NCBI GenBank assembly: GCA_017477255.1
Contig: JAFUXB010000002.1
Span: 182,474 to 246,473 of the forward strand
Origin: Bacilli bacterium
GTDB taxonomy: Bacteria; Bacillota_I; Bacilli_A; RFN20; CAG-826
Reading direction: 5' to 3'
Length of the DNA: 64,000 nt
How positions within the stretch are numbered: position 1 is the first letter of the stretch; each line of letters starts with the position of its first letter. The position numbers were made by a program, and so were the translations under genes. This document shows, piece by piece, positions 2,579-55,329 of this stretch. The notes beneath the pieces were generated by a model. It was not told the DNA's origin. It saw only the letters and a program-made list of their open reading frames with translations, and searched no databases.

Positions 2579-3340
2579 TTAATTTAAACCTAATTTAGTT
2601 AAGAATTCTTCTTCAGTAAAATCAGTACCAAAATCTTCACTAAACCACTGAATTATTTCTTTATAATTATGCTCACCTAAACCATCATTTAATAATGAAT
2701 AATATTCTTCTATAACACATTTATTATTTTTAAAAGGTATAAGTGAAATAGCATGCTCACTTGGATATGTAAAATTTAAATGATCATATTTATAGTCTCT
2801 GGTCCATTTTATTATTTCACTTATATTTTGATAGCTAAAAGTATAAATAGAATCAACATCTTCAAAAAAGGCATTAATTCTATTTTCTTGTTCTTTAATT
2901 TTATTTAATACTATTTCTCTTTTTTCTTTAGTTAAATCAACTAAAGAAAAACTTAATGGTCCATAGCCTTTATAAAGTTTAATTTGTGCTCTATTATATT
3001 CTTTTTTAATAAAATCACTATAATTATCACCAACTAAATCTTTTGTTTCTAAATCATATATTGTACCAGCATCACTAAAATTAAAAATGAGGAATGCATC
3101 AGTTTCTTTAAATAAATAATGACAATTACAATATTCATGTAATTTATATTCTAATAAAATATTTTTAATATTATTAAGTTTTATTAAGGTTTTATTGCGT
3201 TGATATTCACCTTTGTAATATATTCGTGGTCCTGCTTCTTCATATACATAACAAGTAGGATCTCTATCACAATTAAGCCCACAAGAAAAACATAACGAAG
3301 TTAAACAAAGAAAAGTAAATGTAATTAAAGATTTTTTCAT
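2579..3340 (-). CDS. lipoprotein, paralog A of a duplicated pair (Cys-motif EYCNCHYLF), unknown function
   Basis: 253 aa. N-terminus MKKSLITFTFLCLTSLCFSCG. The C-terminal 18 aa (DFGTDFTEEEFLTKLGLN) are identical to the 3671..4444 product. Flanking DNA is also duplicated. Confidence 0.85.
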   Translation of the reverse strand: MKKSLITFTFLCLTSLCFSCGLNCDRDPTCYVYEEAGPRIYYKGEYQRNKTLIKLNNIKNILLEYKLHEYCNCHYLFKETDAFLIFNFSDAGTIYDLETKDLVGDNYSDFIKKEYNRAQIKLYKGYGPLSFSLVDLTKEKREIVLNKIKEQENRINAFFEDVDSIYTFSYQNISEIIKWTRDYKYDHLNFTYPSEHAISLIPFKNNKCVIEEYYSLLNDGLGEHNYKEIIQWFSEDFGTDFTEEEFLTKLGLN

Positions 3341-3640: not shown

Positions 3641-4505
3641 TAAATAATGGGTTTTTACTTAAAACTAATATTAATTTAAACCTAATTTAGTTAAGAATTC
3701 TTCTTCAGTAAAATCAGTACCAAAGTCTTCATAAAAATAATTAAATGTATGACCATCATCATGATCATATATAGCATCTTTCAATAATGAATAATACTCA
3801 TCAATTACACATTTATTATTTCTAAAAGGAATTAATTGGGCAACATCAAATGTACTTACATGCAATATAAGATTATTATCATCGGGATTCTTATAATATT
3901 TTTTAGTGTTAATTAAATAATTGATATCAGAATGTTGTAATGAATAAACAAAATCTAAACTATTAAAAAATTCATTTATTTTACTCTCATGTTCTTTAAT
4001 TTCATTTAATACTCTTTCTTTTTCCTTTTTAGATAGGCCAACTAAAGAATAATTAAGAGTTTTACCGAACAGATAAGGGTCAGAATCTAATTTAATACCT
4101 TCAAATGATGAATTTAAATCATTATATGTATCGTCATTTATTAAACCTCTTGCTTCAATATCATATATTTTCTTTGTATTTTCAAAAACATAAAACAAGC
4201 TTACTGTTGTTGTTTTATATAATATCTCACAATTACAATATTCTTTATATTTATATTCTAAGCTTGCACTTTTAAAAGACGTTAATTTAAAAGCAGTTTT
4301 ACATTCTAGATATTCATTTTTGTCATAACGATCAGGATCGGCTATATCCACAAGAACACATGGTTGAAATCCACAAAGTTTTCCACATGAAAAAGATAAA
4401 GGCAATAAGTTAACAATTAATAATGGAATTAAGCTCTTTTTCATAATTTCTCTTCTTTCATTATATAAGACAATTTAAAAATGGAAAAGTGCTCAAAAAA
4501 ATGAA
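3598..4505. repeat. about 0.9-kb tandem segmental duplication (copy 2; copy 1 is 2506..3412)
   Basis: The 5' and 3' flanks are near-identical. 2521-2640 matches 3611-3730 and 3341-3412 matches 4445-4510. The coding regions are divergent paralogs. Confidence 0.7.
3671..4444 (-). CDS. lipoprotein, paralog B of duplicated pair (Cys-motif EYCNCEILY)
   Basis: 257 aa. N-terminus MKKSLIPLLIVNLLPLSFSCG. Shares its C-terminus and several internal blocks (LIPF(K/R)NNKCVI(E/D)EYYSLL) with 2579..3340. Confidence 0.85.
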   Translation of the reverse strand: MKKSLIPLLIVNLLPLSFSCGKLCGFQPCVLVDIADPDRYDKNEYLECKTAFKLTSFKSASLEYKYKEYCNCEILYKTTTVSLFYVFENTKKIYDIEARGLINDDTYNDLNSSFEGIKLDSDPYLFGKTLNYSLVGLSKKEKERVLNEIKEHESKINEFFNSLDFVYSLQHSDINYLINTKKYYKNPDDNNLILHVSTFDVAQLIPFRNNKCVIDEYYSLLKDAIYDHDDGHTFNYFYEDFGTDFTEEEFLTKLGLN

Positions 4506-5299: not shown

Positions 5300-5920
5300 C
5301 TATTTAAATTTTTTTAGTATCTCGTTTATCCAACTACTGTCAGAGGACTCAAATTTATTCAAAAACATTAAAAAATTTGTGCTAGGTATATCTTTTATGT
5401 TACTAGAAATTTTCGATAAATTATTTTTAAATAAATCAAGAGAGTTATAATTTATTTTGTTTATTAACTGGTCGATTTGTTCATTTTTTGCAGAATAGTT
5501 TTTAATACCAGTTAATTGTTCTACTATTTTAGCGTTTGTTTTTTTGCCTACATTTTTCAATTTAACTTCACCAAAATGAGATAAAATAATTTGTAGTGTA
5601 ACCGGATTAGAATAGATAAACACTTCTAAAGAATCTTTTTTATTTTTAAAAAAATATTCACCAAATGAATTCAAAAAACTTAAAAATTGAGAACTATTAT
5701 TATCTCCATCACAAAAAACTAAAATCAAATCATAATATCCTTTTTGGAACTCATATTGATACCTAGCAAAAATTTTTCCATTTCCCTTTACATTTATAGC
5801 TTCAGCAAAATTATAGACTTCTTTATTTATGTTTGGAAAAGACAAAATTTTATCAATATAGGGTTTTTCTTCGTTTCCCTCAGCTAAAATTAGTATATTT
5901 CTCCTCCTTGTTTCACTCAT
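5300..5920 (-). CDS. RloB-like (Toprim-like, DUF4276/RloB family) protein, partner of the upstream AAA ATPase
   Basis: 206 aa. N-terminus RRRNILILAEGNEEKPYIDKI resembles the RloB consensus ILIVCEGEKTE. Overlaps the ATPase gene by 8 nt, indicating an operon. Confidence 0.55.
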   Translation of the reverse strand: MSETRRRNILILAEGNEEKPYIDKILSFPNINKEVYNFAEAINVKGNGKIFARYQYEFQKGYYDLILVFCDGDNNSSQFLSFLNSFGEYFFKNKKDSLEVFIYSNPVTLQIILSHFGEVKLKNVGKKTNAKIVEQLTGIKNYSAKNEQIDQLINKINYNSLDLFKNNLSKISSNIKDIPSTNFLMFLNKFESSDSSWINEILKKFK

Positions 5921-7163
5921 TATTTATTTCCTCAAGAGACGAAAATAAGTCAGGGGATGGAATTGCTCCAAATTGTCCCTTTAAATAATATTCAGAAATA
6001 TCTTCATCTCCTCTAATTCCGTTATTACTTCTTGAAGTAAAACTAGACATTCTTTTTACAATACTAGTGTTTTTATTTGTTAAATCAATTAAATAAATCT
6101 GATCTTTTCTAAATAATTGTTTAAAATTCAAGAGTAAGACATCATGCGTTGTAAAAACTAATTGCGCTTTTGTGTTTAATAAATTATTAAACATTGAAGC
6201 GATAGATCTAGTAATTATATGATGTAACGAACTTTCGATTTCATCTATAAATAATGTTTTTCCATTATAAAGAGCATCATAAATATACCCAGATAATGCA
6301 ATTAATTTCATAGTTCCTACCGATTCAAAGAAAATAGAAGGAACTCTATAACCATTATGTTTACTGGAAAATTTCAAAAATTCTTTAGAGAATGATGGTG
6401 AAGAAATAACTCTATTAATTTTATCAGATAAATCTTTGTCACTTACAATACTATCGTTAAAGCCAAATTCTTCTATATGTAAATCACAATTTTTTACGAA
6501 TGCTTGTATAAATTTTCTTGCTTTTTCATCATTTTGCATAAAGTTTATAGTTTTTGTAATATCAATTGGGTGATTCATCTCTATAAATAATAACGAATTT
6601 GCAAAATCTATATAGTCTTTTTTAATTTTTTTAATAAATTCATTATTTAAATCATTTAAAATTATTAAAACAGGGAACGATCTAGAAAAAGAATCGTAAT
6701 TTTTAATTTTAAATTCTTTATCATAAATAATATTGTTTTCTTTTCGTTTAAATATCGCTTTGTTTAAAGATTTATTATCTTCGTCTGTATTTAAAATTAA
6801 TTCTTCAGATTCATAAAGTTTTGTTTTATTATTATATGCAACTTTATAAGTGTAGAATCTTTTATTAATATAGTATTCAATTTCAAAAGTTGTTATTGGA
6901 TTATTTTCACTAAAAGCATAAGAAAAATCTTCGTGTGGTTCAGCGAGCATTAATGCTCTTAGCCCTTTAAAAGCTCTAAATAAACAAGTTTTACCAGTAT
7001 TGTTTGGTCCATATACTCCTATTACTTTTAAAATATTTTTTTTCTTAGTTTTAATATAATTAAAATTAAATCTTTTAATATTTCCATTAGCTTGGAAATC
7101 AATTTCAATCTTATTTAAAAACGTTTCAAAATTTTCTACTACTAATCTGCAAATCATAATCAA
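5913..7163 (-). CDS. AAA_21/OLD-type P-loop ATPase (abortive-infection/PARIS/OLD-like ATPase component)
   Basis: 416 aa. N-terminus RLVVENFETFLNKIEIDF plus Walker A VIGVYGPNNTGKTC. C-terminal Walker B and signature block TLFIDEIESSLHHIITRSIASMF, followed by FTTHDVLLL (the D-loop/H-loop of SMC/ABC-like AAA_21). Confidence 0.7.
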   Translation of the reverse strand: MIMICRLVVENFETFLNKIEIDFQANGNIKRFNFNYIKTKKKNILKVIGVYGPNNTGKTCLFRAFKGLRALMLAEPHEDFSYAFSENNPITTFEIEYYINKRFYTYKVAYNNKTKLYESEELILNTDEDNKSLNKAIFKRKENNIIYDKEFKIKNYDSFSRSFPVLIILNDLNNEFIKKIKKDYIDFANSLLFIEMNHPIDITKTINFMQNDEKARKFIQAFVKNCDLHIEEFGFNDSIVSDKDLSDKINRVISSPSFSKEFLKFSSKHNGYRVPSIFFESVGTMKLIALSGYIYDALYNGKTLFIDEIESSLHHIITRSIASMFNNLLNTKAQLVFTTHDVLLLNFKQLFRKDQIYLIDLTNKNTSIVKRMSSFTSRSNNGIRGDEDISEYYLKGQFGAIPSPDLFSSLEEINNE

Positions 7164-7652
7164 AACTCCATAAAATATATTAAAATTATATCATATTTTA
7201 AAAACTGTGCAAATTATTTACACAGATTAACAAAATATAAGAAATTTATATTCAATAAAAAGTTTGCAAAAATTTTGTAATCTGAAAGCAATAATTGATT
7301 TGTAATGAGAATTTTCAAAATTTATAAAAGTAAATAAAAATAGAAATATCTAATTAAAATCATTCAAACAAATATAGGTTCAGGCAAATTAAATAGGGAG
7401 TCTTTTAAATGGACTCCCTGTTTTATTTAACAGTTCTTTTAGTTTAGATCAACTTTTAAAGTAATGAATTCACTCTAACTATAATTACATTTATTTTTAA
7501 AGAATAATTAGGTTTAATCGATAATTTAATTAAACTTGATTAAAAATAAAAACAGACATTTTTGTGTCTGCTTTTAAGTCCCGTTTAATTTAACAGTTTT
7601 GGTGGGTTGTTTGATTTATACCCCGCTATTCCCCGTTTAATTTAACAGATCC

Positions 7653-7744
7653 AGTATACATAATAAAAATCACGAACTTTAGTTGTTAACTAAAAGTTGC
7701 GTGATTAAAATTTTAAGAAAATAATGGGGTTTTGAGGGGTTTTT
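7653..7744 (-). repeat. 91-bp direct repeat copy B with embedded terminator hairpin (7669-7705)
   Basis: Near-identical to 5183-5273. Lies immediately 3' of the giant protein gene, whose stop is at 7763. Confidence 0.75.
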
Positions 7745-7762
7745 AGCTTCAAATTCATTATT

Positions 7763-10700
7763 TTAAGCTACTTCATAGTTATCATTAATAAATTGTTTAA
7801 TAACTTCAATAAGATAATCTAATGTAAAATATCCTTTTCCAATTGGAACTGCTAAATATTCTCCACCCCACCATAAATATTGATCATAAGTAACTAAGTC
7901 TTTGACTAAATTGTAATCTAATGGTCCATATTTTTCTAAATCTTGTTCCATTTTGATAGGGTCATATTTAAATTCTGGAGTAACTTCAAACCAAACATGT
8001 TCATGTAATGTTGGTTCAACAGTTAAAATATTATTTGCTAAATATTGATAATCATACATTGTGTCAATTTCATAATATTCAGTATCTTTATTTTCAACAT
8101 ATGCATCAACAACTCGTTTATATCCTATTGTTGATGTGCCAATATCTGAAAGCAATTTTTTACCTATAAATGAACTATAATTACTAGAATCAATTGTTAC
8201 ATAATCTAATAGTTCTGCATCAAAGAATGATTGTTTCCAAATAGCTTCAACTTTTGATCCATCATCAAATACTACAGTTATAACGTCAGCATTTTGCATA
8301 GTGCCGCTCTCATACCAAATAATTGGCCTATTAACAAATGCACCCTCTTTAAAGCTCCAAGTTTTAACAAGTTCTCCTAACTTAACGTCCTTAATTGCTT
8401 TATAAGAACCGTCTGCCATCGTTACTAAAGTATTTCCAGTAACGCATACACCAGAATTATGCATTATATTAAAATCACAACTATATTCCGTATTATTAAT
8501 GTCTGTTACTTTACATCTCAATACACAAGCATCAGGTTTCTGATTAGTGCGTCCATCAAAATGAATTTTTGTACTTCGTGAACCATCATCATCAATAGTT
8601 GTTTTATTTGCAACCTTTGTTCCAGAATAATCAACCATATATTCTCTTTCTCCTGTTGGACTATAAAAAGTCCATTGAACTTGTGAAATTTGACCATTTG
8701 ATGGCTCCCATTTTAAACTATAAGTAATTGTTGTGTCTGTACTTGTAACTTCTTCGTGATAAGACCAATTTTGTGCAACTGTAATTCCGCTGACTCCATC
8801 ATGTTCACTTGATGTTCCGACAACTGTTTTTGAAGATTTGTTAGTACTACTAGTAATCCAAACCGATGTAACACCGACTAAGCTATCATCTGGAATTACT
8901 TCAGTATTATATGTACCAAAAACTTCACTATGATATGAAGATGTTGCAGTAATAACAACTTGCCCTAAATTAACACCAGTAACTTTGCCTGTTTCATCTA
9001 CAGTTGCAATTGATGTATTGCTTGAAGACCAAATTACGTCCTTATTATAAGCTTTTTCAACATCAATCAAGTTAGCTTTTAATTGAATACTATGATTTAT
9101 ATATAAAGGATCTTTACCATTATCTAATTTCCCAGTAGTACTCTCTACAGTTATAGATTGTACATCAAATTCATTAATACCATTATTGTTAGATGATATA
9201 CTAGGCAAACTATTTATTACACAAAATACTACATTACTAGCATTATTAATGTATGATCTATAAGCATACCTACTAGATGTGCCAAAAACATTGTTGTTAC
9301 CTTTAAAGACATTAACATTATAAATGTTATTTAATAATTCTAATTGAGCATTAGTCACAGAATCGACATGGAGAACTTTTTGAACTCCATTTATTTGCCA
9401 TTGTTCTCCATTGTTAATTACATTTAACTTTGGTTTATTTGGGTTTGGAAAATCGTTTGAATTAAAAAATGTATTCATTCCTATAAGGATTTTCTTTGAA
9501 TTAATCTTTTCTAATGACGATATCGAAAGTTGCTCTCTTATTATTAAGTAATCTTTAATAACAAAAGGCGCGCTTCTTACATCTTGATTCCATGGTTCAT
9601 TGCTCTCTACGATATCTGACGACGAATAAATAATGTTTGCTGAATCGTTGCAATATACATTTCCACCAATTTTTTGCATGGTAATCTTTCCACCATCCTC
9701 AACGATACAATTTGCATTATTTTTAACAGGATAATGAGCTCCACAACTCCATTTTGATGTTGGTCTCTCTCCACTGCTGTTATCAATGAATGTGCTATAT
9801 ACCGTCAATTCTGATCCGTTTAAATCCACGTTATTAGAAACAGCCAAAGATGCTTCAGGTAACAATTTTATTTTTTGATTTAATGTAGAAAATGTTGCTC
9901 TACCACTTTGGTTTGAATTTCTAAGCAAACTAATATTCATTTTATATGAAACAGGGAAAAAACCATTTGCTGTACTTAAAGTCTTTTCAACACCACTAAT
10001 TTTAATCTTAAAGCTAAATGTATTAAGAGAAAAACCACCATAAAATTTTAAATTCATTATTTTTTTATCTTTGTCATATTTTGCTTCCAAATATGAATAA
10101 GTAGAATTGGTAAGTTTAACTAAAGCTGCATTCCCGTTGGATATTATCAAAGAATCATTATTTGCAATAACTTCATCAATTGTTCCAATAATAGGAATTC
10201 CAGTTTGATACACGTATACATTAGAGCACCCATATAATTTAGCATTATATCTAAAGTATGAAGTGCAAAAAATATTTCTAAACTCAATTTGATTAAATGG
10301 TGGAACGCCATATGTATTATTTGCTTCTTCCATACCACTTGCAACAGAAAAACCTCTATAATCGCAAACTACTAAAGGCATATATACTGTTCCATTTGCA
10401 AAATCTATATAACTATTATTATTTTTTACATCTTCTTCTATATAACCATAACAATGTGTTATTGCAGTACTTGAATTTTGGATTATTGCTGCTCCATGTT
10501 TTAATAAAAAACGAGAATACGAAAAACCAGTATAACTAATTAATGAGGAGTTTTGGTTTGTTCCAGAATAAAGATAACCACTGATTACAAGAGTACCATT
10601 ATTAATTAATGTTTTTCCACTCTCTATTTCTACTGTAGTTCTTAAATAATTCGTTGAATGATTAATAGCATCTTTATCGGTACTTCCGAGGTTTCTGCTA

Positions 10701-11140
10701 TCTTTCCACATTGATTTAATGTAAGTTTCAAGTGTTTCCTGATTATTAACACTGTCAATATTATTTTTATCTGTTGGCAAAATTAAAGTAACGCCTTGTT
10801 TAATTTCACAATTATCTTTTATTTTATATGTAACGGAATCTACAGAAATTTTATTATTTACTGAATGATAATTTTGTTTTTTTGGTGGTATTGTAACAAC
10901 AATATCACCACTATTAGCACTTTTTAAAGCTCCTTCAATAGTTGGAAAATATATTTTGTTAGATCCAGCAATATAAGCTACAGGCTCCTGAACGCTGCTT
11001 GTATATGTTTCATTAGTACTATTAGCTGTATCATTTTGATTATCTCCAGCATTCCAACTAGCATAAGAAACTTTAGGCATTAATCCTAAAGAAATAAATG
11101 CAAACATAAAAAATGCTAAAAGTTTTTTAAACCACTTCAT
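7763..11140 (-). CDS. giant secreted multidomain protein 1 (ASW-type SipW-cognate-like signal peptide; Big_2; C-terminal Hint/BIL autoprocessing domain)
   Basis: 1125 aa. N-terminus MKWFKKLLAFFMFAFISLGLMPKVSYASWNAGDN. Big_2 block IQLKANLIDVEKAYNKDVIWSSSNTSIATVDETGKVTGVNLGQVVITATS. Hint block A CVTGNTLVTMADGSYKAIKDVKLGELV. The conserved C-terminal tail is shared with 20554..24099. Start overlaps the stop of 11140..11757 (TAATG). RBS AAGGAG. Confidence 0.85.
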   Translation of the reverse strand: MKWFKKLLAFFMFAFISLGLMPKVSYASWNAGDNQNDTANSTNETYTSSVQEPVAYIAGSNKIYFPTIEGALKSANSGDIVVTIPPKKQNYHSVNNKISVDSVTYKIKDNCEIKQGVTLILPTDKNNIDSVNNQETLETYIKSMWKDSRNLGSTDKDAINHSTNYLRTTVEIESGKTLINNGTLVISGYLYSGTNQNSSLISYTGFSYSRFLLKHGAAIIQNSSTAITHCYGYIEEDVKNNNSYIDFANGTVYMPLVVCDYRGFSVASGMEEANNTYGVPPFNQIEFRNIFCTSYFRYNAKLYGCSNVYVYQTGIPIIGTIDEVIANNDSLIISNGNAALVKLTNSTYSYLEAKYDKDKKIMNLKFYGGFSLNTFSFKIKISGVEKTLSTANGFFPVSYKMNISLLRNSNQSGRATFSTLNQKIKLLPEASLAVSNNVDLNGSELTVYSTFIDNSSGERPTSKWSCGAHYPVKNNANCIVEDGGKITMQKIGGNVYCNDSANIIYSSSDIVESNEPWNQDVRSAPFVIKDYLIIREQLSISSLEKINSKKILIGMNTFFNSNDFPNPNKPKLNVINNGEQWQINGVQKVLHVDSVTNAQLELLNNIYNVNVFKGNNNVFGTSSRYAYRSYINNASNVVFCVINSLPSISSNNNGINEFDVQSITVESTTGKLDNGKDPLYINHSIQLKANLIDVEKAYNKDVIWSSSNTSIATVDETGKVTGVNLGQVVITATSSYHSEVFGTYNTEVIPDDSLVGVTSVWITSSTNKSSKTVVGTSSEHDGVSGITVAQNWSYHEEVTSTDTTITYSLKWEPSNGQISQVQWTFYSPTGEREYMVDYSGTKVANKTTIDDDGSRSTKIHFDGRTNQKPDACVLRCKVTDINNTEYSCDFNIMHNSGVCVTGNTLVTMADGSYKAIKDVKLGELVKTWSFKEGAFVNRPIIWYESGTMQNADVITVVFDDGSKVEAIWKQSFFDAELLDYVTIDSSNYSSFIGKKLLSDIGTSTIGYKRVVDAYVENKDTEYYEIDTMYDYQYLANNILTVEPTLHEHVWFEVTPEFKYDPIKMEQDLEKYGPLDYNLVKDLVTYDQYLWWGGEYLAVPIGKGYFTLDYLIEVIKQFINDNYEVA

Positions 11141-11757
11141 TATGCATTCTCCTTAGGGGTAAATGTAATATTAAAATTAGCAGAGGCTAAATTAGGAAAA
11201 CTTGATAAAGATCCAGTCCATTTTAAATTTAGACTAAAATCAAAGCTAAAATCAGCATCCGTATTTGTACATGTAATAACAAATGATGTTGTAATTGCTT
11301 CTCCATCTACTGGATCAGTATCATTAACGCTAAAATTTGTACTAGTTAATGACATTGAGCTGGATGAAAAACCATTAGGATTTAATCCATTTGGTAAAGC
11401 AGTTGATAAACTAACATCTAATTTGAAAGATTTTGTGTTTCTATAGCTTGTAAAGCATGATTTTGCATTCGCTGTATTAACTAAGCATGTGCCAGTTAAA
11501 TCAACGTTATCAGCGTAAATTCCATCATTAACAAAGCCATATCCAGTTGCATATTCAAAATTTCCTAATGAAGAAATTGTAATTACATCAAGAGCTTCGC
11601 CAGTTCCTCCTGTAATTACATCTCCAACACTTAAATCAACAGTCATATTATTAGTTGCCTGTGTAGCTACTGCCCACGTTGAAAAACCAAGTCCTACTAA
11701 GCTAATAATAGAAACTGGACATAAAACAACAAGTAACTTTCTTCCTATCTTTTTCAT
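11140..11757 (-). CDS. TasA/camelysin-like secreted protein 1 with SipW-cognate-type signal peptide
   Basis: 205 aa. N-terminus MKKIGRKLLVVLCPVSIISLVGLGFSTWAVATQ aligns to the B. subtilis TasA signal region (LALVGGGTWAAFND). The mature part starts TVDLSVG, compare TasA SGTLDLS. Translationally coupled to the giant gene. Confidence 0.6.
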   Translation of the reverse strand: MKKIGRKLLVVLCPVSIISLVGLGFSTWAVATQATNNMTVDLSVGDVITGGTGEALDVITISSLGNFEYATGYGFVNDGIYADNVDLTGTCLVNTANAKSCFTSYRNTKSFKLDVSLSTALPNGLNPNGFSSSSMSLTSTNFSVNDTDPVDGEAITTSFVITCTNTDADFSFDFSLNLKWTGSLSSFPNLASANFNITFTPKENA

Positions 11758-15788: not shown

Positions 15789-18416
15789 TTAGAATAGTGG
15801 ATTTTTCCATATATCAATTGGATCTAAAACTACTGGATCAATGCCATTAATTATAAACCAACTATAATATGAGCTAGGACTTGACCCTCCATTATATTTA
15901 CCAGCACTAGCAAAATCGACAAGTCTAACAAAATTTCCATTATAAGGAACATCAATATAAGCTAAACAGTTTATAGTGTTTCCATTTTGTACTTCTAATT
16001 TTTCAAGATTTGATGCATTTAATACTATATTTTTTGAAAATAAAACTTGAGGACAATATTTATTTAAATAATATTCATCTAATGTAAATAAAATTGGTCC
16101 ATAATATAAGGATGCATAGCCTGATTGAGAACGTTCTCCTAACCAAGTTGAAAAATGTAAATCTAAATTAAGTTCGATTTCATCTCCATTTTTCCATACT
16201 TTATCTATTTCATAATATTCATTAAATGTAGCACTATGAGTTTTAGAATCATATTTAACAATTGACTCAAAACTCCATGATGGAATTCTTAATTTTAATT
16301 TAAATGGAGTTGGTTTTTCTAAACCTTCTATAGTTATTTTAATATTTCCGTTTAATGGATAAGACGTTACTTCTTTTATAGTAACACTAGCGCCATTTAC
16401 ACTAGTTTTAATAGTAGAATTACCATAATAATTTAAATATAAAGAAGGTCCATCAGTTAAGCATGCCCATTCAACAATTTGCCCAATTCCACGTGCAAAA
16501 TTTGCTTGGCAACAATTCATATCAGGTGAACCTGAATTAAATTGGAATGATATATCTTGTTGTGAACTTACTCTTCTTCCATCATATCCTCCAGATAATC
16601 CTCTAATACCATTCATAGGAGTATTATAAGAACAATATTTATCGTCATCTAATTGTGCACCTAATATTCCATTAAAATAACTTCTTTCAAGTTCATCTAA
16701 TACTTCTACTTTTTTAGAATATTTATAAAATTCATTAGTAAAAGCACACCAAGCAATTGTACAACAAGTTTCAATTACTCCATCTTTATAAGGATCACCA
16801 ATTGCTCCTTCATTTGTAGTAAATCCACCTGTATTATGGATATCTGTAGATTGAATATCGTACCAAATTTGTTCTAAAACGTTGTAATATTCTTCGTTTT
16901 TAGTTTCTTCAAATAAAATACCTAAAGTCATAATCATGTGTAAAACTTCCCATCTAGCACTAGATGAACGATAGAAATTTCCACCTCTAAGAGCAGTTTT
17001 ATACCATCCACTTTGATCTTGACAATCCTGCATTATTATTCTTTCTGCTTCATTTAAATATTTTTCTTCTTTATTAACTTGATACATTAAAGCATAAGCA
17101 TGAGCTATTGCTCTATTTGTTTCAAATCCACCTTTTACTAAATAACTTCTATCTTTAAAAGTTTCATAGATTGCATCAAGACATTTTTTAGAAATAGTTA
17201 AAGCTTTTTCATTATTTGTTAATTTATACCACTCTAAAAGTCCTACAACTGCGTGATATTGATTCCATAAATCCCAGTTAGCTGAACCTATTGAATATCT
17301 AGATTGACCTTTAAATACACCTAAATATCCATCTTCTCCTTGAGCTTCTTCTAACTCATTAATAATTTCAGTTGCGGCATTAAATAATTCTTCATCTTTA
17401 GTTGCTTTATAAGAAAAACTAATTCCAGTTAATAGTTTTCCTACAAATTCTCCATACCGTGCTAATCCAGAAGGTTGTTCCATAGGATCATCTATACTTC
17501 TTTCTCTTAATAAATTAATATCCCAAATAACTTTATAAGTGTCACTAGTTCCCGTGTTTATTGGTAAATCATTTCCAGCAACACTACCAACAATTGCAAA
17601 ATCAGCTAATCTAAATGTTTTATTTAATGAAGTTGATGATCCTTTTATTGCTATTTGAAATTGAGCAATACATGAAGAATCTATAATTCTATTTCCACCT
17701 TCACACCAATAACATTCATAATAATCTTTATTAAAAGGTAAAGCTACATATCCTTCAAAATTAGCAGGAATAGAAACAAATCCGCCTTCACTAATACTTG
17801 CTTTTATAGCTTCACCATTACTTTTATATAAATTAACTTCTTTTCCATCGATTAATTTATATGATTCTCTTCCAACACTATTATCTTCAAAGCAAAGTCT
17901 AAGACCAGTTGTAGCTCCTATTTCACTATTATCAACATATACCCAAAGTTCTTTAATCCCTTGCCAACTAGTAATAGCATTAATATCGTTAACAAATCTA
18001 AAATCTCTATCTCCAAAACTAGTTGGAAGTGATTTTAATTTAAAACCAATATAGTTTTTATCATTCTTTTTAACTACATCAATATCATAATATCCATCAA
18101 CACCAAAGTAGTCTTGACCTAATACTTCACTAAGTGAAGATGTATTACTATTTTCATTTGCTTTTTTTATTTGAGTAATAATATTTGGGTTATTTTTGTA
18201 GGCACTTTTTTGCCAATATTTAATATTATTTTTAAAGTTTTTACCTAAAAACCCTTTTAAATCCAGTTCTTTTATATAATTTTTCAAAACACCAATCTCA
18301 CTTTCTTCATAATCAGTTTTGCTTGTATTTTCTTCAGTTTTATTACTTTTACAAGCATAAGTAAAAACTAATGAACCAATTAATAATAAAGCTGGTACAT
18401 TCTTTTTCTTTTTCAT
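15789..18416 (-). CDS. lipoprotein glycoside hydrolase, GH127/DUF1680-like (beta-L-arabinofuranosidase-like)
   Basis: 875 aa. Lipobox LVFTYAC. The E-x-C motif (IETCCTIAWC) and the CC motif (DMNCCQANFARG) lie about 85 aa apart, as in the Zn site of GH127 HypBA1 (Glu338/Cys340/Cys417/Cys418). The WDLWNQYH block is typical of an (alpha/alpha)6 barrel. Confidence 0.5.
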   Translation of the reverse strand: MKKKKNVPALLLIGSLVFTYACKSNKTEENTSKTDYEESEIGVLKNYIKELDLKGFLGKNFKNNIKYWQKSAYKNNPNIITQIKKANENSNTSSLSEVLGQDYFGVDGYYDIDVVKKNDKNYIGFKLKSLPTSFGDRDFRFVNDINAITSWQGIKELWVYVDNSEIGATTGLRLCFEDNSVGRESYKLIDGKEVNLYKSNGEAIKASISEGGFVSIPANFEGYVALPFNKDYYECYWCEGGNRIIDSSCIAQFQIAIKGSSTSLNKTFRLADFAIVGSVAGNDLPINTGTSDTYKVIWDINLLRERSIDDPMEQPSGLARYGEFVGKLLTGISFSYKATKDEELFNAATEIINELEEAQGEDGYLGVFKGQSRYSIGSANWDLWNQYHAVVGLLEWYKLTNNEKALTISKKCLDAIYETFKDRSYLVKGGFETNRAIAHAYALMYQVNKEEKYLNEAERIIMQDCQDQSGWYKTALRGGNFYRSSSARWEVLHMIMTLGILFEETKNEEYYNVLEQIWYDIQSTDIHNTGGFTTNEGAIGDPYKDGVIETCCTIAWCAFTNEFYKYSKKVEVLDELERSYFNGILGAQLDDDKYCSYNTPMNGIRGLSGGYDGRRVSSQQDISFQFNSGSPDMNCCQANFARGIGQIVEWACLTDGPSLYLNYYGNSTIKTSVNGASVTIKEVTSYPLNGNIKITIEGLEKPTPFKLKLRIPSWSFESIVKYDSKTHSATFNEYYEIDKVWKNGDEIELNLDLHFSTWLGERSQSGYASLYYGPILFTLDEYYLNKYCPQVLFSKNIVLNASNLEKLEVQNGNTINCLAYIDVPYNGNFVRLVDFASAGKYNGGSSPSSYYSWFIINGIDPVVLDPIDIWKNPLF

Positions 18417-18427
18417 TTTTTAGCCTT

Positions 18428-20353
18428 TTAAGAAATTTTTTCTAAATATGATTTAAATTCTTCGCTATTTTTATCTAATATACTTTGAGAACTATATTCA
18501 ACTGAATATTTACTACTTGCTCTATCTGCACATGAAGTAATATTTAAAGCAAATAAACCTCTATATCCAGCTAATTCTTCTTCACTAAATTGACATTTTA
18601 ATACATCATTATAGAAGAAATATGTAGCTTGACCTATTTTTAAAATAGCTACTTTATAACTAAATACATCTCCATCCATTGAATCAGACTTATTACCTAA
18701 TGAAATAAAATATTTTTCTACTCCATTAAATCTAGCGAATAAATTAACTGCTCCACCATTATCTGTTTCAATGTTATACCATGAATTATCACTATTATTA
18801 AAAGCAAATGCTGATGGTCTAATCCAACCTGTTGAATCTTCTAAAACACTAACTCTACCTACATATAACATATCTGTAGGAACAGCTATTTCTGCTTGTC
18901 TAGTTTCTGCACCAGTTTCACTAAATAAAGTTGTATTTTCTATATCTTTATAGATTTTTTCTCTAAATTCAGCGTAATTTGCACTATTTTCATATTCAAA
19001 TTTATTATTAGTTATATTAACTTTAAATTCTTTTCCTTCTTGCCATACATCTGTAGTTGATGTTACTTCTAAGAAGTCAAGACTTGGATAGCCACGAAGT
19101 TCAGCTTCATTAAACCAACAAACAAGTTTTTTATTAAAGAAATAATATGTTTCTTGTCCTTCTTTTAATATATTAACTTCAAAATGAATTTTATCATTAA
19201 CCATTAAATCACTCTTATTTCCTAAAAAGATCCAATATTTTTCTACTCCATTAAATCTAGCAAATAAATGAAGAGCGCCTTCAGCATTCATTTCAATGTT
19301 ATACCAAGAATTATCACTTCCATTGAATGCAAATGCTACGGGTCTAGTTGCGTTATTATCCCATTTTTCTACATCTATAGTTGAACTAAATAACATATTT
19401 TCTTTATTAGCAATATAGCCATATCTATATTTTTGTTCATCACCTTGTTCATGAGCTAAAGTAAAATCAGCAAAATTAACTGTACTTGGATTAACTAATT
19501 CATGATATGCTCCAGTATTTTCTAATTCATAATATACTTTACTTAAATTAATAATATATTCTCCAGCATTTTCTCTATCTGCTGCAGCTGTTACTTCCAT
19601 TGTAGCTAAACTTGCATAGCCTTCCATTTCTTTTTCAGTAAATCCACAAACAGCTTTATTATTGAAATAGAAAGTTGTAGCTTGTCCATTTCTTAATATA
19701 TCAACATCATATTCAATACTATTTTCTACGATATAATCAGCTTTATTTCCTAAATAGATCCAATATTTTTCTATTCCATTAAATCTAGCAAATAAATGCA
19801 TATTACCACTTGCGTCCATTTCAATGTTATACCAAGAATTATCACTAGCATTAAAAGCAAAACTTGAAAGTCTAGTATATTCATTTACATATTTAATAGC
19901 TGAAACATGGAAATGTAATAAATATTTATTAATTGAAGCATCAGGAGTTTTAACAGCATATTTACTTTCTCCTCCTGTAGGACTTGTTAAACTTGCTTCA
20001 ATATAATTAACATGAACATCAAAAGTGGTTTCATGATGAGAAGTTTTAGCTTTAACAGTTGTATCTGAATTAGGTATTAATCCTTTAACTTTACCATCAT
20101 TAATTTCAATAGCATTTCCTTCAAATGTATATGTAACTTCTTCTTCATATTCTTCTTTAGAAAATACTGGATTTAAAATTAATTCAGACATAAATGTTAC
20201 TTCAACATCTTCTAAAGTTAATGTTCCATAATCTATTTTTTGTTCATCAGGATCTGGAATTGGTGTAACAGGGTCATTTTCTTTTTTAGAACAACCAAAA
20301 GTTCCTAAAAGCGTAATTGCTGAAAGCAATACAGTAAAAATTTTCTTTTGCAT
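18428..20353 (-). CDS. lipoprotein with three tandem repeats of about 150 aa (possible lectin/CBM-like repeats)
   Basis: 641 aa. Lipobox LLGTFGC. Three repeats each contain AFAFN(A/G/N)SDNSWYNIE(M/T)...LFARFNG(I/V)EKY(W/F)I.LGNK.D and YFFN.K..C.F.E.E..GY. Confidence 0.8.
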   Translation of the reverse strand: MQKKIFTVLLSAITLLGTFGCSKKENDPVTPIPDPDEQKIDYGTLTLEDVEVTFMSELILNPVFSKEEYEEEVTYTFEGNAIEINDGKVKGLIPNSDTTVKAKTSHHETTFDVHVNYIEASLTSPTGGESKYAVKTPDASINKYLLHFHVSAIKYVNEYTRLSSFAFNASDNSWYNIEMDASGNMHLFARFNGIEKYWIYLGNKADYIVENSIEYDVDILRNGQATTFYFNNKAVCGFTEKEMEGYASLATMEVTAAADRENAGEYIINLSKVYYELENTGAYHELVNPSTVNFADFTLAHEQGDEQKYRYGYIANKENMLFSSTIDVEKWDNNATRPVAFAFNGSDNSWYNIEMNAEGALHLFARFNGVEKYWIFLGNKSDLMVNDKIHFEVNILKEGQETYYFFNKKLVCWFNEAELRGYPSLDFLEVTSTTDVWQEGKEFKVNITNNKFEYENSANYAEFREKIYKDIENTTLFSETGAETRQAEIAVPTDMLYVGRVSVLEDSTGWIRPSAFAFNNSDNSWYNIETDNGGAVNLFARFNGVEKYFISLGNKSDSMDGDVFSYKVAILKIGQATYFFYNDVLKCQFSEEELAGYRGLFALNITSCADRASSKYSVEYSSQSILDKNSEEFKSYLEKIS

Positions 20354-20553: not shown

Positions 20554-23500
20554 TTATCTTGCTTGACCGGTTTTAAATAAATTAGCAACGTATTTCATTA
20601 CATTAATAATATGTTCTTTAGTAGTAATTCCTTTTTGAACTACTATATTGCAATATTTACCATTAATCTTTTCAAAGAAGTCTAAAGACATATAATCTTT
20701 CCATTCTTCATATGAATAAAGACCATATTTATTAATATCTTCTTCCATTAATTTTTCATCATATTTATATGAATTATCCATTTCAAAATAGTTACATGTT
20801 ATATCAACACATGTTTCAGTAATTGATAACACGTTATCAGTAACGCAGTTAACGTTATAATCAGTTAATATTGAATATGCATGACAATATTCTTCACTTA
20901 CTTCAATGTCTACAATTTTCTTAATTCTAATAGATCCATTATTTTCACAAACTACTTCTCTATTTATGAAACTGTTATAGCTATTTCTATTGATAGATTC
21001 GTATTTTTTAGTGTCATTCATTAATACACCATGAGCATTAATTATTTCAAAATTAGAACCATCATCAAATATAACATTAATCTTTGTATTATAGTCATTA
21101 CCATGATCAATTAATGCTAATATATTACTGTATTCAAACTTACCTTCGAAATGATTAAATGTTAAAACTTTATCTTCTTTAATTAAATCTTTAGCTTTCT
21201 TTAAACCATTTAATGTATTAATTAATGTGTCTTCTGAGAAACAACCTCCACTGTTTTTTGATGCATTTGCCACAGTAATGGTAGCATTTCCTGTACCAGA
21301 TACTGTATATGGGCTTGCATTGCCAGTCAAATTCGTGACTGCGATATTTCCTGCTGTATAGTCACTTTCTGCACTTACTTTAATTGTTATTACATCATTA
21401 ACATTAATCGACTGACTAACATTTTCTGTGCTTGATGCTGCAATCGTTGTATCATTAACGATTATAGTATTACCACGCTTAATACTATATGTAGCTGTTT
21501 CGTTACTACCAACATTAATTGTTAAATTATAAGAGATTGGCGTTTGTTCTCCAACAACAGTAATCGACTGGCCCCGAGAAGTTGATAAACAAACACCTGT
21601 TTGACCAGTTTTTAAAGTATGTCCATCTAAAGCTCCGCCAGTTACTTGCCATACCATTTCATAACCAGTAGGTAATGTAATTCCATAATTTGCTGCATCT
21701 GGAACAGTAAAGATTGCATCTTTATTTAAATATCTAATAGTTTGTACTAAATTATTGCCTGCAATCCCGATTGTTATTTCGTTTTTGTTAAGCCAATTTG
21801 CATACAGCTCACAAGAACCTGTAATTTGTGAATTGCTAGTATATTTATTATTAAACGAAGAATCTAAATACCAACCATCAAAATATTTTCCATATGATGT
21901 ATTGCTATTTTTGCCACTTAAATCAGGAACAACTAATTTATCAACATTAACACTTAGAATATCTTCTGAAGAGATGCAAGTGCATCCTTCATCTGTATTA
22001 TCATTTACATAAGTTATCGTGAAGGTCTCAGTATCAGCAGGATACCATCTGCCATATAAATTCAAATTATATGGTGAAGATAAATATGCAAAAATATTAG
22101 AATTTATCTGAGTAATTTTTGTTTGATATAATGAATCAATATACCAACCATCAAAAATTAATGAATTATGTTTTGCAGGATATAAATTTAAATTTGATTC
22201 AACATTAAACTGTGTAGGATTTCTTGAATCATTGCTTTGTCCACTTATTTGATTACCTTCAAAATCGACGTTAAAATTATACGAAATTGAGTAATTGATT
22301 GGTGACCATTTTGCATATAAAACTACACTACTATAAACTACATTAGAAAGCGCACTAATTGTACAATTTTCATCTAAAAACCATCCATCAAAATTGTAAT
22401 GTTCTCGTACAGGAGTATTCGCAATGTCATCGTTATTTATTGTGTATCCTCCATTTCCTATTGTTATAGTTTTTGGGCTAAAAGTCGTCGATGAACCATT
22501 GCAATCATACGATATAGTTCCAGCATTAGAAAACCGTCCATAATTGCTCTCTGTATCTACATATGAAAAATATGTGCCTGGTCCAACATTCTCAAAAACA
22601 TCACTGATTAATCCATTTTTTAACAATTTTAATTTTAATGATCCGTTTATAGTTGTATATGTTACACTTGTAAAAATAGTGCTGCCACTGTGGTTTAAAT
22701 GTTCATAAGATGTTATAGAAGTATTTGTAGCTGTTGTTTGAGCCCCTTCATTTGTTGAAATTACCAAGCCTGCTAATTTTTGAGCTGACAAAACTCCATT
22801 ATTAATCAAAATAGGTTCACTAGCTGTGTTAGGATACGCAGTGTGTGAATCAGTACTTAGATCTTTATAATTTTCATAACTTATTAAATCATCTACATTT
22901 AAAGTCGCAGTTTCGTCAATAAACACTCTACAACCTTTCATTAATTTTAATTTGTTTGAACATGTTATTGTTCCATTAAAAAAATATAGATGGAATGAAT
23001 AAGAAAGTGAAAATCTAAACGATGATGTATCTAAAGAAGTTCCTGCGACATTTAAAGTCAAAGCGTTAATTTTACAGTTTCCTCTTACCCTTATATCCAT
23101 AAAATTTAAATATCTATTACTATAATTTGAAGAATTATTATTTGCATAATTATATTTAAAATCAATAATTGCACCACTAGACATTTGAAATAGATGTGAA
23201 GATGAATTTCCTATAATTTTTATATCCTTTGCACTATGTGAATCACTACTAGCATAAAGCCAGGTATCAACAGTCAACGATGCACCATATTGAATATTAA
23301 CTAGAGGCCTCACATTACAAATCTCATACTCATTAAAAAATATTACATTTTTAGATGACTTATCACTGTTTAATCCATATGTAACTGAACCGCCTCGAAA
23401 ATCGTGAATGATAAAAGGAGCATTTAAAATAGAACCGGATTCAAGTATAATTTTTGGCCAAGTAGTTCTATCTGCCACTTCATCATAATCACCCTGATGT

Positions 23501-24099
23501 TTTGCATATTCTGTAATGTAGCCATAAACAGTTAATTTCGATCCGTTCTTGCAAAGTACTTGGGAATTATCTTTTAATGTTAATTGTGCATAATTACCAT
23601 TAGTAGCACCCCCATACAATCCTGCTCCAGCACCTGCTCCAATAGAACCACCTACAATCATTGTCCCATAATTAGTTATTTTGACCCCATCATCAAGTGT
23701 AACTTTTAATTTCATATAGGTGGCATCATCTTGTTCTTTAAAAACGTTACTAGATGTAGGAGAATTTATATATGTTTCATTTTCATAAGGCAAAATTAAA
23801 CTAACACCACTATTAATAGTAAAACTATTTTTAACAATTGGATTACTTCCAGGAATGACATAAACCGTTTTATTTCCAACATTGTTTGCTGAATTTATAG
23901 CGGCTTCTAGAGATGAAAAATAAGTAGAATCATAATAAGCAACCGGATTTGATTCTTGTGCGCTTACCTTATTACTACTTACTTCATTAATTTTTCTTAT
24001 TTCATCTGAAACCCATGAAGCGCTACCAGTTTTAATTGTAGAAAAAATACACCCAAAAAAAATTAAAAAACCAATAAATATGTTCTTAAATTTTTTCAT
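20554..24099 (-). CDS. giant secreted multidomain protein 2 (paralog of 7763..11140; Gly-rich/beta-helix region, three Flg_new repeats, C-terminal Hint/BIL domain)
   Basis: 1181 aa. N-terminus MKKFKNIFIGFLIFFGCIFSTIKTGSASWVSDE. The N-terminal block PVAYYDSTYFSSLEAAINSANNVG is homologous to giant 1. Flg_new repeats YNFDGWFLDENC...LYAKW, LIFDGWYIDS...LYGRWY and KYFDGWYLDSS...LYANW. Hint block A GGCFSEDTLINTLNGLKKAKDLIKEDKVLTF. ATGA overlap with 24096..24761. Confidence 0.85.
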   Translation of the reverse strand: MKKFKNIFIGFLIFFGCIFSTIKTGSASWVSDEIRKINEVSSNKVSAQESNPVAYYDSTYFSSLEAAINSANNVGNKTVYVIPGSNPIVKNSFTINSGVSLILPYENETYINSPTSSNVFKEQDDATYMKLKVTLDDGVKITNYGTMIVGGSIGAGAGAGLYGGATNGNYAQLTLKDNSQVLCKNGSKLTVYGYITEYAKHQGDYDEVADRTTWPKIILESGSILNAPFIIHDFRGGSVTYGLNSDKSSKNVIFFNEYEICNVRPLVNIQYGASLTVDTWLYASSDSHSAKDIKIIGNSSSHLFQMSSGAIIDFKYNYANNNSSNYSNRYLNFMDIRVRGNCKINALTLNVAGTSLDTSSFRFSLSYSFHLYFFNGTITCSNKLKLMKGCRVFIDETATLNVDDLISYENYKDLSTDSHTAYPNTASEPILINNGVLSAQKLAGLVISTNEGAQTTATNTSITSYEHLNHSGSTIFTSVTYTTINGSLKLKLLKNGLISDVFENVGPGTYFSYVDTESNYGRFSNAGTISYDCNGSSTTFSPKTITIGNGGYTINNDDIANTPVREHYNFDGWFLDENCTISALSNVVYSSVVLYAKWSPINYSISYNFNVDFEGNQISGQSNDSRNPTQFNVESNLNLYPAKHNSLIFDGWYIDSLYQTKITQINSNIFAYLSSPYNLNLYGRWYPADTETFTITYVNDNTDEGCTCISSEDILSVNVDKLVVPDLSGKNSNTSYGKYFDGWYLDSSFNNKYTSNSQITGSCELYANWLNKNEITIGIAGNNLVQTIRYLNKDAIFTVPDAANYGITLPTGYEMVWQVTGGALDGHTLKTGQTGVCLSTSRGQSITVVGEQTPISYNLTINVGSNETATYSIKRGNTIIVNDTTIAASSTENVSQSINVNDVITIKVSAESDYTAGNIAVTNLTGNASPYTVSGTGNATITVANASKNSGGCFSEDTLINTLNGLKKAKDLIKEDKVLTFNHFEGKFEYSNILALIDHGNDYNTKINVIFDDGSNFEIINAHGVLMNDTKKYESINRNSYNSFINREVVCENNGSIRIKKIVDIEVSEEYCHAYSILTDYNVNCVTDNVLSITETCVDITCNYFEMDNSYKYDEKLMEEDINKYGLYSYEEWKDYMSLDFFEKINGKYCNIVVQKGITTKEHIINVMKYVANLFKTGQAR

Positions 24100-24761
24100 A
24101 TAACAGATTCCGCTCCTAAAGTTACTTTAAATCCGACTCCGTTTGAAACATATTTATATGTATTATAAAATGTCGAAAAATTTACAGGTGAAAGAGCAGC
24201 TAAAATAGAAAAATTAACATTTTCATCAGTCAAATCAGAAACACTTGTGTTATATGAAATTATTATTTCAGATCCATTTTCAACAGTTATACCATCATTT
24301 ATTTGTGTCAAATTATGTAATGCGCTGATATTCGTTTTGTTTGCATTAACAGTAACAATATTATTTAGATTCAAAGTATTATTGCCATCAAATCCATTGA
24401 TTTTCAAAATAATCCTCATTTCATTTGATAATAATAAAGATTTGATTCCTCTTTTGGCTAAATTTAAATTAATTGATGAATTTACGGTTATATACCCACC
24501 ATAAGGGTCAATTATCGAACCTTCTTGAGAATACGTTCCATCACTCATTTCAAAGCCATATTGAGACATCTTAAAAGTTTGTAATGTTACTGATCCAAAT
24601 GCATCAATATTATCTGCAGTTTCGACATTACCAACTGATAAGTTTACTGAAATATTAGTACTTACTTGCTTAGCAACAGCCCATGTTGAAAAACCTAACC
24701 CGATTAAGCTAACCATTGAAACGGGAAGCAAAATAGCCAATAACTTCTTATTTATCTTCAT
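24096..24761 (-). CDS. TasA/camelysin-like secreted protein 2 with SipW-cognate-type signal peptide
   Basis: 221 aa. N-terminus MKINKKLLAILLPVSMVSLIGLGFSTWAVAKQVSTNISVNLSVGNV is a paralog of 11140..11757. RBS GGTAAGAG. Confidence 0.6.
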   Translation of the reverse strand: MKINKKLLAILLPVSMVSLIGLGFSTWAVAKQVSTNISVNLSVGNVETADNIDAFGSVTLQTFKMSQYGFEMSDGTYSQEGSIIDPYGGYITVNSSINLNLAKRGIKSLLLSNEMRIILKINGFDGNNTLNLNNIVTVNANKTNISALHNLTQINDGITVENGSEIIISYNTSVSDLTDENVNFSILAALSPVNFSTFYNTYKYVSNGVGFKVTLGAESVI

Positions 24762-53638: not shown

Positions 53639-53641
53639 AAA

Positions 53642-55327: not shown

Positions 55328-55329
55328 AG

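Follow-up and report, generated by a model that had tools for sequence, protein, structure and literature searches.

A Hint domain and a conserved acidic tail form a probable Hedgehog-Hog-like autoprocessing module at the end of large surface proteins from uncultured gut Bacillota

Hint chemistry underlies protein splicing, the release of toxins and the lipidation of Hedgehog. To our knowledge, descriptions of a Hint lastingly joined to a conserved helper domain at the C-terminus are essentially limited to the eukaryotic Hog proteins. In Hog, a region that recognises the sterol or other adduct follows the Hint (PMC2362128), and a cysteine, C143, forms a branched intermediate (PMC12054796). The bacterial intein-like (BIL) domain BIL2 ligates: a lysine in the domain behind it receives the N-extein (PMC8616854). 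In polymorphic toxins the body is conserved, the toxin is hypervariable and directly preceded by a Hint or another peptidase, and a neighbouring gene confers immunity (PMC3482391). Here we analyse a stretch of 64,000 nucleotides from the genome of a Bacilli bacterium (GCA_017477255.1, contig JAFUXB010000002.1, positions 182,474 to 246,473), referred to below as the window, in which two genes, g1 and g2, encode large secreted proteins whose last 227-229 residues are a module made of a Hint and a tail of ~82-86 aa. The most likely role of this two-part ending is to sever the preceding protein or to re-attach it chemically, rather than to deliver a toxin. Judging from sequences and models, it is probably an autoprocessing module that resembles the Hedgehog 'Hog' part, in which a Hint like those of BIL2 and Hedgehog is paired with an acidic helical domain of ~80 residues that co-evolves with it.

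The initial annotation of the window described two 'giant' proteins with Hint block A about 200 to 230 aa from the C-terminus. At 1125 and 1181 aa these proteins are large, not giant; block A was found in both as quoted, with Cys899 of g1 (..NSGV-C899-VTGNTLVTMADG) and Cys953 of g2 (..NSGG-C953-FSEDTLINTLNG) lying 226 and 228 residues before the C-terminus. The range of 7763..8250 given for the Hint needs correction, as it covers the last 162 codons of g1 only, which encode the C-terminal half of the Hint together with the tail; block A lies outside. The two endings are homologous, as had been stated: an alignment of 232 aa shows 31% identity (E 1e-22), and both contain the tail motif that was quoted.

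Against single sequences, the Hedgehog Hint family PF01079 scored E 9e-4 (g1) and 2.5e-5 (g2), under its 29.7-bit cut-off, and the intein N-terminal model TIGR01445 gave E 0.005-0.008. These single-sequence scores are weak, and the identity of the Hint is nevertheless settled because the profile and fold matches are far stronger. A profile of g1 and g2 alone retrieved BIL2 of the Tetrahymena BUBL1 locus (PDB 6TMM/6Y75) at E 6e-6. When a 29-member family profile was compared with PDB, BIL2 matched over the whole Hint (profile positions 6-149) at E 1.3e-11 and Hedgehog 1AT0 at E 0.006. Foldseek searches with the AlphaFold model of the g1 module returned BIL2, mini-inteins, Hedgehog and a Clostridium thermocellum BIL at E 2e-6 to 3e-4 (Hedgehog 1AT0, E 1e-5), and all 38 PDB matches at E<=1e-3 were inteins, BIL domains or Hedgehog. 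Pfam matches among the 29 members were to PF01079 (26 members), Intein_splicing (17), Hint_2 (PF13403; 11, all weak) and PT-HINT (PF07591; 6, best E 1.4e-4). The similarity to Hint and BIL domains that had been proposed is therefore real; the two Pfam families named for it, PF07591 and PF13403, match weakly, and for g1 and g2 PF07591 is missing from the matches at E<=1. We conclude that the C-terminal domain of g1 and g2 has the Hint fold and belongs to the Hint (Hedgehog/intein) superfamily.

A word-indexed homologue search with the two window sequences found no match. An exhaustive HMMER search of 1.84 billion representatives of clusters formed at 50% identity returned 3271 proteins at a threshold of E<=1e-3, of which 1108 reach E<=1e-30; the database matches to the module bear no functional name. 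The best 150 matches align from just before Cys1, the first residue of the Hint, to the end of the tail, and in 145 of 151 full modules the module lies within 15 residues of the C-terminus. The proteins that bear it are mostly 700-3500 aa long, and one genome often holds several copies on unrelated surface proteins. A scan of one genome per species, with an 8-sequence alignment as the query, confirmed 180 loci. The best 80 of these 180 all come from metagenome-assembled or otherwise uncultured genomes, nearly all from animal gut, that are assigned to Oscillospiraceae, Faecousia, Christensenellaceae, other Clostridia, Acholeplasmatales and "Bacilli", with a locus G+C of 28 to 55%. Export signals in 25 carriers included ordinary signal peptides, TasA/SipW-like "GTTFAWFTDS" and prepilin-type "KGFTLVELLVVIA" sequences; carriers from low-GC lineages have the "xSW"-type signal seen in g1 and g2.

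We compared g1 with its nearest relative, P0002, to assess how the parts of such proteins have diverged. The module is 80% identical between the two in an ungapped alignment that begins at residue -1 and reaches the C-terminal end; the passenger, by which we mean the protein preceding the module, is 25% identical, and the gene upstream of the carrier 22%. Within the module, dN is 0.15 and dN/dS ~0.06 at a saturated dS of ~2.3. Constraint on the tail (dN 0.13) equals or exceeds that on the Hint (dN 0.16). Hint and tail thus behave as one portable two-part cassette.

The catalytic signature was examined in 152 modules of the family. Cys1 is invariant (152/152), and the residue before it is G, S or T in 81% of modules. 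The block B His is present in 122 modules and replaced by Gln in the other 30, g1 among them, and this Gln form is always accompanied by a Ser to Glu change at g1 position 1024. The block B sequence Thr-x-x-His reads ..INAH.. in g2, with Ile for Thr and the His kept, and ..IWKQ.. in g1, with Gln970 in place of the His. A Hint that has lost its activity could, together with the tail, bind or anchor the protein to a partner or to the cell surface. The lack of the block B His in g1 and 20% of the family speaks for such a role, as do members without a passenger and the existence of Hint-like non-catalytic folds, of which AXH is matched weakly by 12 of the 29 members. However, Cys1 is retained in every module, all Q-type members included, the residue before it stays small, and the exchange of His for Gln comes with a compensating Glu rather than with general decay. 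We therefore regard a non-catalytic Hint as improbable.

The C-terminal His-Asn of inteins and A-type BILs is absent; the family has V, M, L or I at this site, followed by T, A, E or P. The residues aligned to ..LAHN of BIL2 are T-V-E in g1 and S-I-T in g2, and Asn is not among the six commonest residues at the terminal-Asn position in the 152 modules. Asn cyclisation at an 'N-x-F-E' sequence after the Hint was also considered and rejected, as the Asn is present in 83 of 152 modules and missing in g1. Because the His-Asn is absent, only the junction before Cys1 can react, and it is therefore the N-terminal passenger that would be freed or ligated. By intein chemistry, the tail could not be cut from the Hint and would stay fused to it. 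The initial annotation had favoured autoproteolytic release or covalent attachment of a conserved C-terminal module; self-processing remains the likely reading, and the C-terminal module as its cargo does not.

These features also bear on the reading in which the Hint frees the tail as a toxin or other effector, with immunity encoded elsewhere. A Hint placed just before the C-terminal domain of large secreted repeat proteins is the classical layout of polymorphic toxins (PMC3482391), and the weak PT-HINT matches in 6 of 29 members point the same way. But the C-terminal Asn that would sever the tail is missing. More than 1000 clusters conserve the tail, which is under strong purifying selection, and the N-terminus is variable; between g1 and P0002 the tail is 80% and the body 25% identical, the reverse of the conserved body and variable toxin of these systems. 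No toxin family or fold matches the tail. Across 25 inspected carrier loci the downstream genes are mutually unrelated and lie on either strand, and some members sit between housekeeping genes, two short ones among genes for translation factors and ribosomal proteins. In the spacer after g1 (7164..7762) the sole ORF of at least 20 aa is a low-complexity one of 34 aa, and the ATPase gene beyond it belongs to an AbiLi/AbiLii pair. A conserved and constrained tail, the lack of His-Asn and the lack of an immunity gene at the 25 loci led us to reject the toxin reading, which we consider extremely improbable, in agreement with the view first taken of these endings.

The tail is conserved on a par with Cys1. 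In g1 numbering, residues D1067, Y1071, G1072, Y1076, K1102 and G1103 vary little or not at all across the family, K1102 being Lys in 145 of 152 modules. The domain is acidic (median pI 4.3, net charge -8), and 37 tail sequences predicted on their own gave a small four-helix domain with a pLDDT of 86. Pfam holds no family for these 37 tails, and NCBIfam no matching model; a profile search of PDB found no relative, Foldseek of the tail model against PDB gave nothing below E 4, and PADLOC contained no toxin or other relative. An EF-hand or dockerin assignment for the D-x-x-x-Y-G loop was rejected (EF-hand_6 in 2 of 37 tails, E 0.11). A tail-only search recovered just three proteins, of 86-88 aa, and two of these look like mis-called fragments because they begin with the last strand of the Hint (MLTV..). 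As far as these searches reach, the tail is not found apart from the Hint.

To look for co-variation between the two parts, we applied a mean-field coupling analysis to 277 modules, with five tail-shuffled controls as the null. Sensible strand pairings within the Hint were recovered. Six Hint-tail couplings exceeded the maximum of the five controls, though shuffling the tail also removes shared ancestry, which makes this null lenient and the couplings suggestive. They connect tail positions 200-207 (N-G-x-Y-L-K-V-A, directly before the invariant K-G) with Hint positions 72, 79, 134 and 138, and tail positions 157-161 with Hint positions 36-38. Position 79 adjoins the block B His, so that the 200-207 segment couples to the strands of blocks B and F. 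On the reading that we favour, the tail belongs to the processing machine as one of its subdomains and is neither cargo nor toxin.

The mechanism that we propose begins with export by the N-terminal signal, after which the module would fold outside the cell. Cys1 would attack the preceding bond (Val898-Cys899 in g1, Gly952-Cys953 in g2) to form a thioester, a step that we infer because Cys1 is invariant, the residue at -1 is small and the fold is that of a Hint. Without a C-terminal Asn, the sequence predicts neither splicing nor release of the tail, which would remain on the Hint. Discharge of the thioester would then part the variable passenger from the Hint-tail, which would keep a free N-terminal Cys. 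Taken jointly, autoprocessing of this kind at the N-terminal junction is likely. Should it occur, the thioester may be discharged to an acceptor or to water, and each of these is a serious possibility that falls somewhat short of probable.

Discharge to water would be a hydrolytic shedding or maturation step: the passenger would be freed, and the tail would be a helper in folding, oligomerisation or metal sensing that is discarded with the Hint. The C-terminal intramolecular chaperones of phage tailspikes and the Ca-triggered self-processing module of FrpC offer analogies. The passengers look like adhesins of the long fibre or beta-helix type, the tail carries its D-x-x-x-Y-G loop and is acidic, and no acceptor is evident. 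In five carriers, Ig-like domains or a membrane anchor follow the module, and cleavage would free the N-terminal part from such a stub; one of the five, P0017 (3496 aa), contains two modules in its interior and ends in a membrane anchor. However, the Hints of polymorphic toxins and BILs do without such a tail (PMC3482391, PMC7765530), and an extra domain with invariant D, Y and K and with couplings to the catalytic strands seems to exceed what hydrolysis needs. A metal-sensing helper fits poorly with the scarcity and weakness of the EF-hand matches. A phage origin of the module, with a role as a tail-fibre chaperone, was dropped, as a search of 2.9 million viral contigs found no relative, and the same result speaks against a phage-like chaperone here. 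We consider hydrolysis as the whole function possible, though doubtful.

The discharge that we favour is onto a nucleophile that the tail selects or activates; this could be a molecule of the envelope, a target molecule or the amine of a protein, and the passenger would be left with a covalently modified C-terminus. We lean to a tail-chosen acceptor because other bacterial Hint and BIL domains cleave without a conserved tail domain (PMC7765530), because the invariant Asp, Tyr and Lys of the tail are conserved like catalytic residues, because the Hint-tail couplings, suggestive as they are, exceed the shuffled controls, and because the closest solved relative, BIL2, is a ligating BIL (PMC8616854). 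In its fullest form, which we put forward tentatively, the cassette may be an enzyme-free sorting or ligation device, a 'sortase in cis', whose tail would bind and activate a specific nucleophile to which the C-terminus of the passenger, activated as a thioester, would be joined covalently. Candidate nucleophiles are a lipid or glycopolymer of the cell envelope, a host or dietary glycan, and an amine of a co-encoded GFxSW partner protein.

Several observations weigh against an autoprocessing module of the Hog kind. One of the two window proteins, g1, lacks the block B His. In the profile alignment, the position of Hedgehog D46, where an Asp or His activates the incoming nucleophile, is Asp in g2 and Ser945 in g1, and among the 152 family members it is N in 48, K in 21, D in 19, S in 11 and E in 11, with His as the next residue in 77. 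The Hedgehog sequence behind this alignment, which we take to be correct, reproduced the score and the coordinates of the 1AT0 profile match. A general base of the D46 type is thus not conserved, with Asp or Glu in ~20% of members, and a second conserved Cys comparable to C143 is lacking, as no Cys column besides Cys1 reaches 80% conservation. The tail is soluble and has no lipid-binding character. Its good model is the one predicted in isolation from the Hint; when the module was modelled by AlphaFold from a two-sequence alignment, the Hint part was confident and the tail had a pLDDT below 50. The lenient coupling null belongs here as well. Carriers are known from uncultured organisms only, and the gene context of the inspected loci indicates no acceptor or partner enzyme. 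Lastly, L034 (5893..6675) consists of a signal peptide, ~6 residues and the Hint-tail, and so is nearly without a passenger; P0183 has a 39-aa leader without a signal peptide before the module. The L084 member (6001..6777), encoded between a MatE gene and infC-rpmI-rplT, is a protein of 258 aa with a 39-aa leader and no signal peptide. Such nearly passenger-less members are odd for a pure processing device.

How does the module relate to the described systems? In Hog, adduct addition requires a C-terminal region of ~60-80 aa after the Hint. The likeness of the module to Hog is one of architecture: a secreted passenger, Cys preceded by a small residue, a Hint that lacks the C-terminal Asn, and a helical region of ~70-80 aa at the extreme C-terminus. 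PF01079 is the most frequent Pfam match of the family, and the Asp of g2 aligns with D46. Unlike Hog, the module is bacterial, and its tail has no detectable similarity to any known domain and is acidic and soluble rather than hydrophobic; the family lacks a conserved D46-type base and a C143 equivalent (PMC12054796), and has no known adduct. BIL2 is the closest solved relative in both sequence and fold. The frequent His of an 'N-H-G' motif in the family aligns with the Zn-binding H48 of BIL2, and the lysine acceptor in the domain following BIL2 (PMC8616854) has a possible parallel in the invariant K1102 of the tail. In contrast to the family, BIL2 keeps the terminal His-Asn (N143) and frees itself, and it is flanked by ubiquitin-like domains in a cytoplasmic eukaryotic protein; identity is ~18%. 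The module is Hog-like in its proposed working, closest to BIL2 in sequence, and a member of neither group, because the Hog-specific residues, a similarity of the tails and the terminal Asn of BIL2 are all absent.

Relations to the remaining Hint systems are more distant. Splicing inteins have the block G His-Asn that is missing here, followed by Cys, Ser or Thr at +1, and are inserted at a conserved site of a host protein whose halves they rejoin, whereas this module is terminal. BIL and PT-HINT domains are likewise bacterial Hints in secreted, non-conserved proteins, and they cleave rather than splice (PMC7765530, PMC3482391). A-type BILs and pre-toxin HINTs differ by their His-Asn, and PF07591 matches few members of the family; with B-type BILs the lack of a C-terminal motif is the sole feature in common. 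BILs also lie in hypervariable regions, before a variable toxin and an immunity gene, whereas here the C-terminal flank is the most conserved part. A functional analogy may be drawn with LPXTG proteins, sortases and their relatives, in which C-terminal sorting signals are processed through an acyl-enzyme intermediate. There, as here, a generic C-terminal cassette occurs on many unrelated surface proteins per genome, and the thioester proposed here would likewise form at the new C-terminus of the passenger. The difference is that the cysteine 'enzyme' would be built into the substrate and act in cis for a single turnover, with no separate transpeptidase or acceptor known.

The coordinates of g1, g2, their parts and the genes before them are collected in Table 1. 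The window has a G+C content of 23-33% and uses the standard bacterial code (code 11). Translation with code 4 (TGA as Trp), which might have lengthened g1 and g2, was rejected: TAA terminates both ORFs, and TGA as a sense codon gives no extension. In GenBank, g1 is present as a fragment, MBR1581696.1, 'Ig-like domain-containing protein [Bacilli bacterium]', and g2 is MBR1581703.1, 'InlB B-repeat-containing protein [Bacilli bacterium]', both from a metagenome-assembled genome; the two names reflect the passenger only. The signal peptide of g2 ends in ...GSA|SW and is similar to that of g1.

Table 1. Features of g1, g2 and their upstream genes in the window
Feature	Position	Strand	Remarks
g1, secreted carrier protein	7763..11140	-	ORF, 1125 aa
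g1 N-terminal signal peptide	11060..11140	-	27 aa, ...SYA|SW; site inferred by the -3/-1 rule
g1 passenger domain	9596..10981	-	~460 aa, common to g2 and other Hint-tail carriers; alignment, tblastn
g1 Big_2 Ig-like domain	8939..9067	-	aa 692-734; PF02368, E 5e-11
g1 Hint domain	8012..8446	-	aa 899-1043; Q-type, Gln970 instead of the block B His, paired with Glu1024
g1 Cys899 codon	8444..8446	-	Hint residue 1, predicted nucleophile; predicted scissile bond Val898-Cys899
g1 tail	7766..8011	-	aa 1044-1125; conserved, acidic, helical
g2, secreted carrier protein	20554..24099	-	ORF, 1181 aa
g2 counterpart of the g1 passenger domain	22700..23940	-	
g2 Listeria-Bacteroides (Flg_new) repeats	22294..22518	-	PF09479, E 4.5e-18; TIGR02543, E 2e-13
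g2 Hint domain	20815..21243	-	aa 953-1095; H-type, block B His present
g2 Cys953 codon	21241..21243	-	Hint residue 1, after Gly952
g2 tail	20557..20814	-	aa 1096-1181; conserved
u1, secreted partner	11140..11757	-	205 aa, N-terminal 'GFSTW'; stop overlaps the g1 start by one base (11140)
u2, u1 paralogue	24096..24761	-	221 aa; overlaps the g2 start by 4 bases

The N-terminal regions of g1 and g2 (~500 aa) are also related, at 23% identity (E 3e-18). The passenger domain within them has a repetitive, beta-rich sequence ('Y..[ST][IL]E.A[LI]..') and matches no Pfam family; it recurs in five further Hint-tail carriers, three of which were matched by tblastn with the g1 domain at E 1e-25 to 1e-32. 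The middle regions are unrelated, with Big_2 in g1 and Listeria-Bacteroides repeats in g2.

In low-GC lineages, the carrier gene is preceded by a gene for a small secreted protein (205-227 aa) with the N-terminus 'SLxSxGF[AS]xW'. The window has two, u1 and u2, which are 46% identical over 82 aa (E 1e-17), and further members of the family occur at five of the other carrier loci, at one of which (L086) the small gene overlaps the carrier start as it does in the window. The family (205-279 aa) has no Pfam or NCBIfam match. Two more copies lie in tandem at 39235..40074 and 40077..40910 on the minus strand. Among the window ORFs scanned, there was no SipW-type signal peptidase or other partner.

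Downstream of g1, 599 bp of non-coding DNA precede a gene for an AAA_21 ATPase, and downstream of g2, 200 bp precede a gene for a 641-aa lipoprotein, both as initially described. The ATPase is AbiLi (PADLOC E 9e-61; Pfam AAA_21), and its gene overlaps an AbiLii-like gene of 206 aa (5300..5920; E 3e-6). The two (5300..7163, minus strand) are an anti-phage abortive-infection pair that is unrelated to g1. The spacer between g1 and AbiLi holds three copies of an 18-nt motif, CTGTTAAATWAAACRGGG, in 7416..7648 (minus strand), which is exclusive to this spacer (chance expectation 0.04), and terminator-like hairpins at 7576..7547 and 7225..7205. The lipoprotein after g2 (18428..20353, minus strand) has three internal repeats of ~170 aa.

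Other genes of the window were noted in passing. Several paralogous lipoproteins on the minus strand have no family match, among them the pairs 2579..3340 with 3671..4444 and 26834..27973 with 27961..29103, and also the lipoprotein after g2; the first pair shares the identical ending FGTDFTEEEFLTKLGLN. A 387-aa fusion of a response-regulator receiver domain and an ABC-transporter ATPase domain (33154..34317, minus strand) is followed directly by a polytopic membrane protein of 539 aa (31535..33154). The 800-aa MalK-like ABC ATPase at 58721..61123 (minus strand) has an apparent insertion of ~130 aa, because the 137-position profile of its nucleotide-binding domain is spread over residues 56-321, and also a long C-terminal extension. 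Four consecutive GH43 genes, a GH127 beta-L-arabinofuranosidase gene and genes for ABC sugar permeases (51155..58718, 15789..18416 and 61138..63197, all on the minus strand) look like a region for the utilisation of arabinan-type glycans, which fits a gut polysaccharide degrader.

A full-text literature search returned no description of the module; its coverage was incomplete, and this is absence of evidence only. The Hint part is already a known kind. What was not found in the libraries and literature searched is the obligatory, co-evolving and invariant tail, the behaviour as a cassette, and the size and taxonomic focus of the family.

The two-part Hint-tail module is abundant, with at least 1108 clusters, and the proteins that bear it are the largest on the surface of uncultured gut Bacillota. 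If it does no more than cleave, it would be a widespread maturation or shedding step for the adhesins of gut bacteria. If it ligates, it would anchor proteins by a new chemistry, be a candidate for an evolutionary link with Hedgehog autoprocessing, and offer a compact tool for single-turnover protein labelling. Were the tentative 'sortase in cis' to hold, the module would be a bacterial counterpart of Hedgehog cholesteroylation, and possibly a relative of its ancestor, and would provide gut Firmicutes and wall-poor Bacilli with a new means of anchoring or cross-linking their surface proteins.

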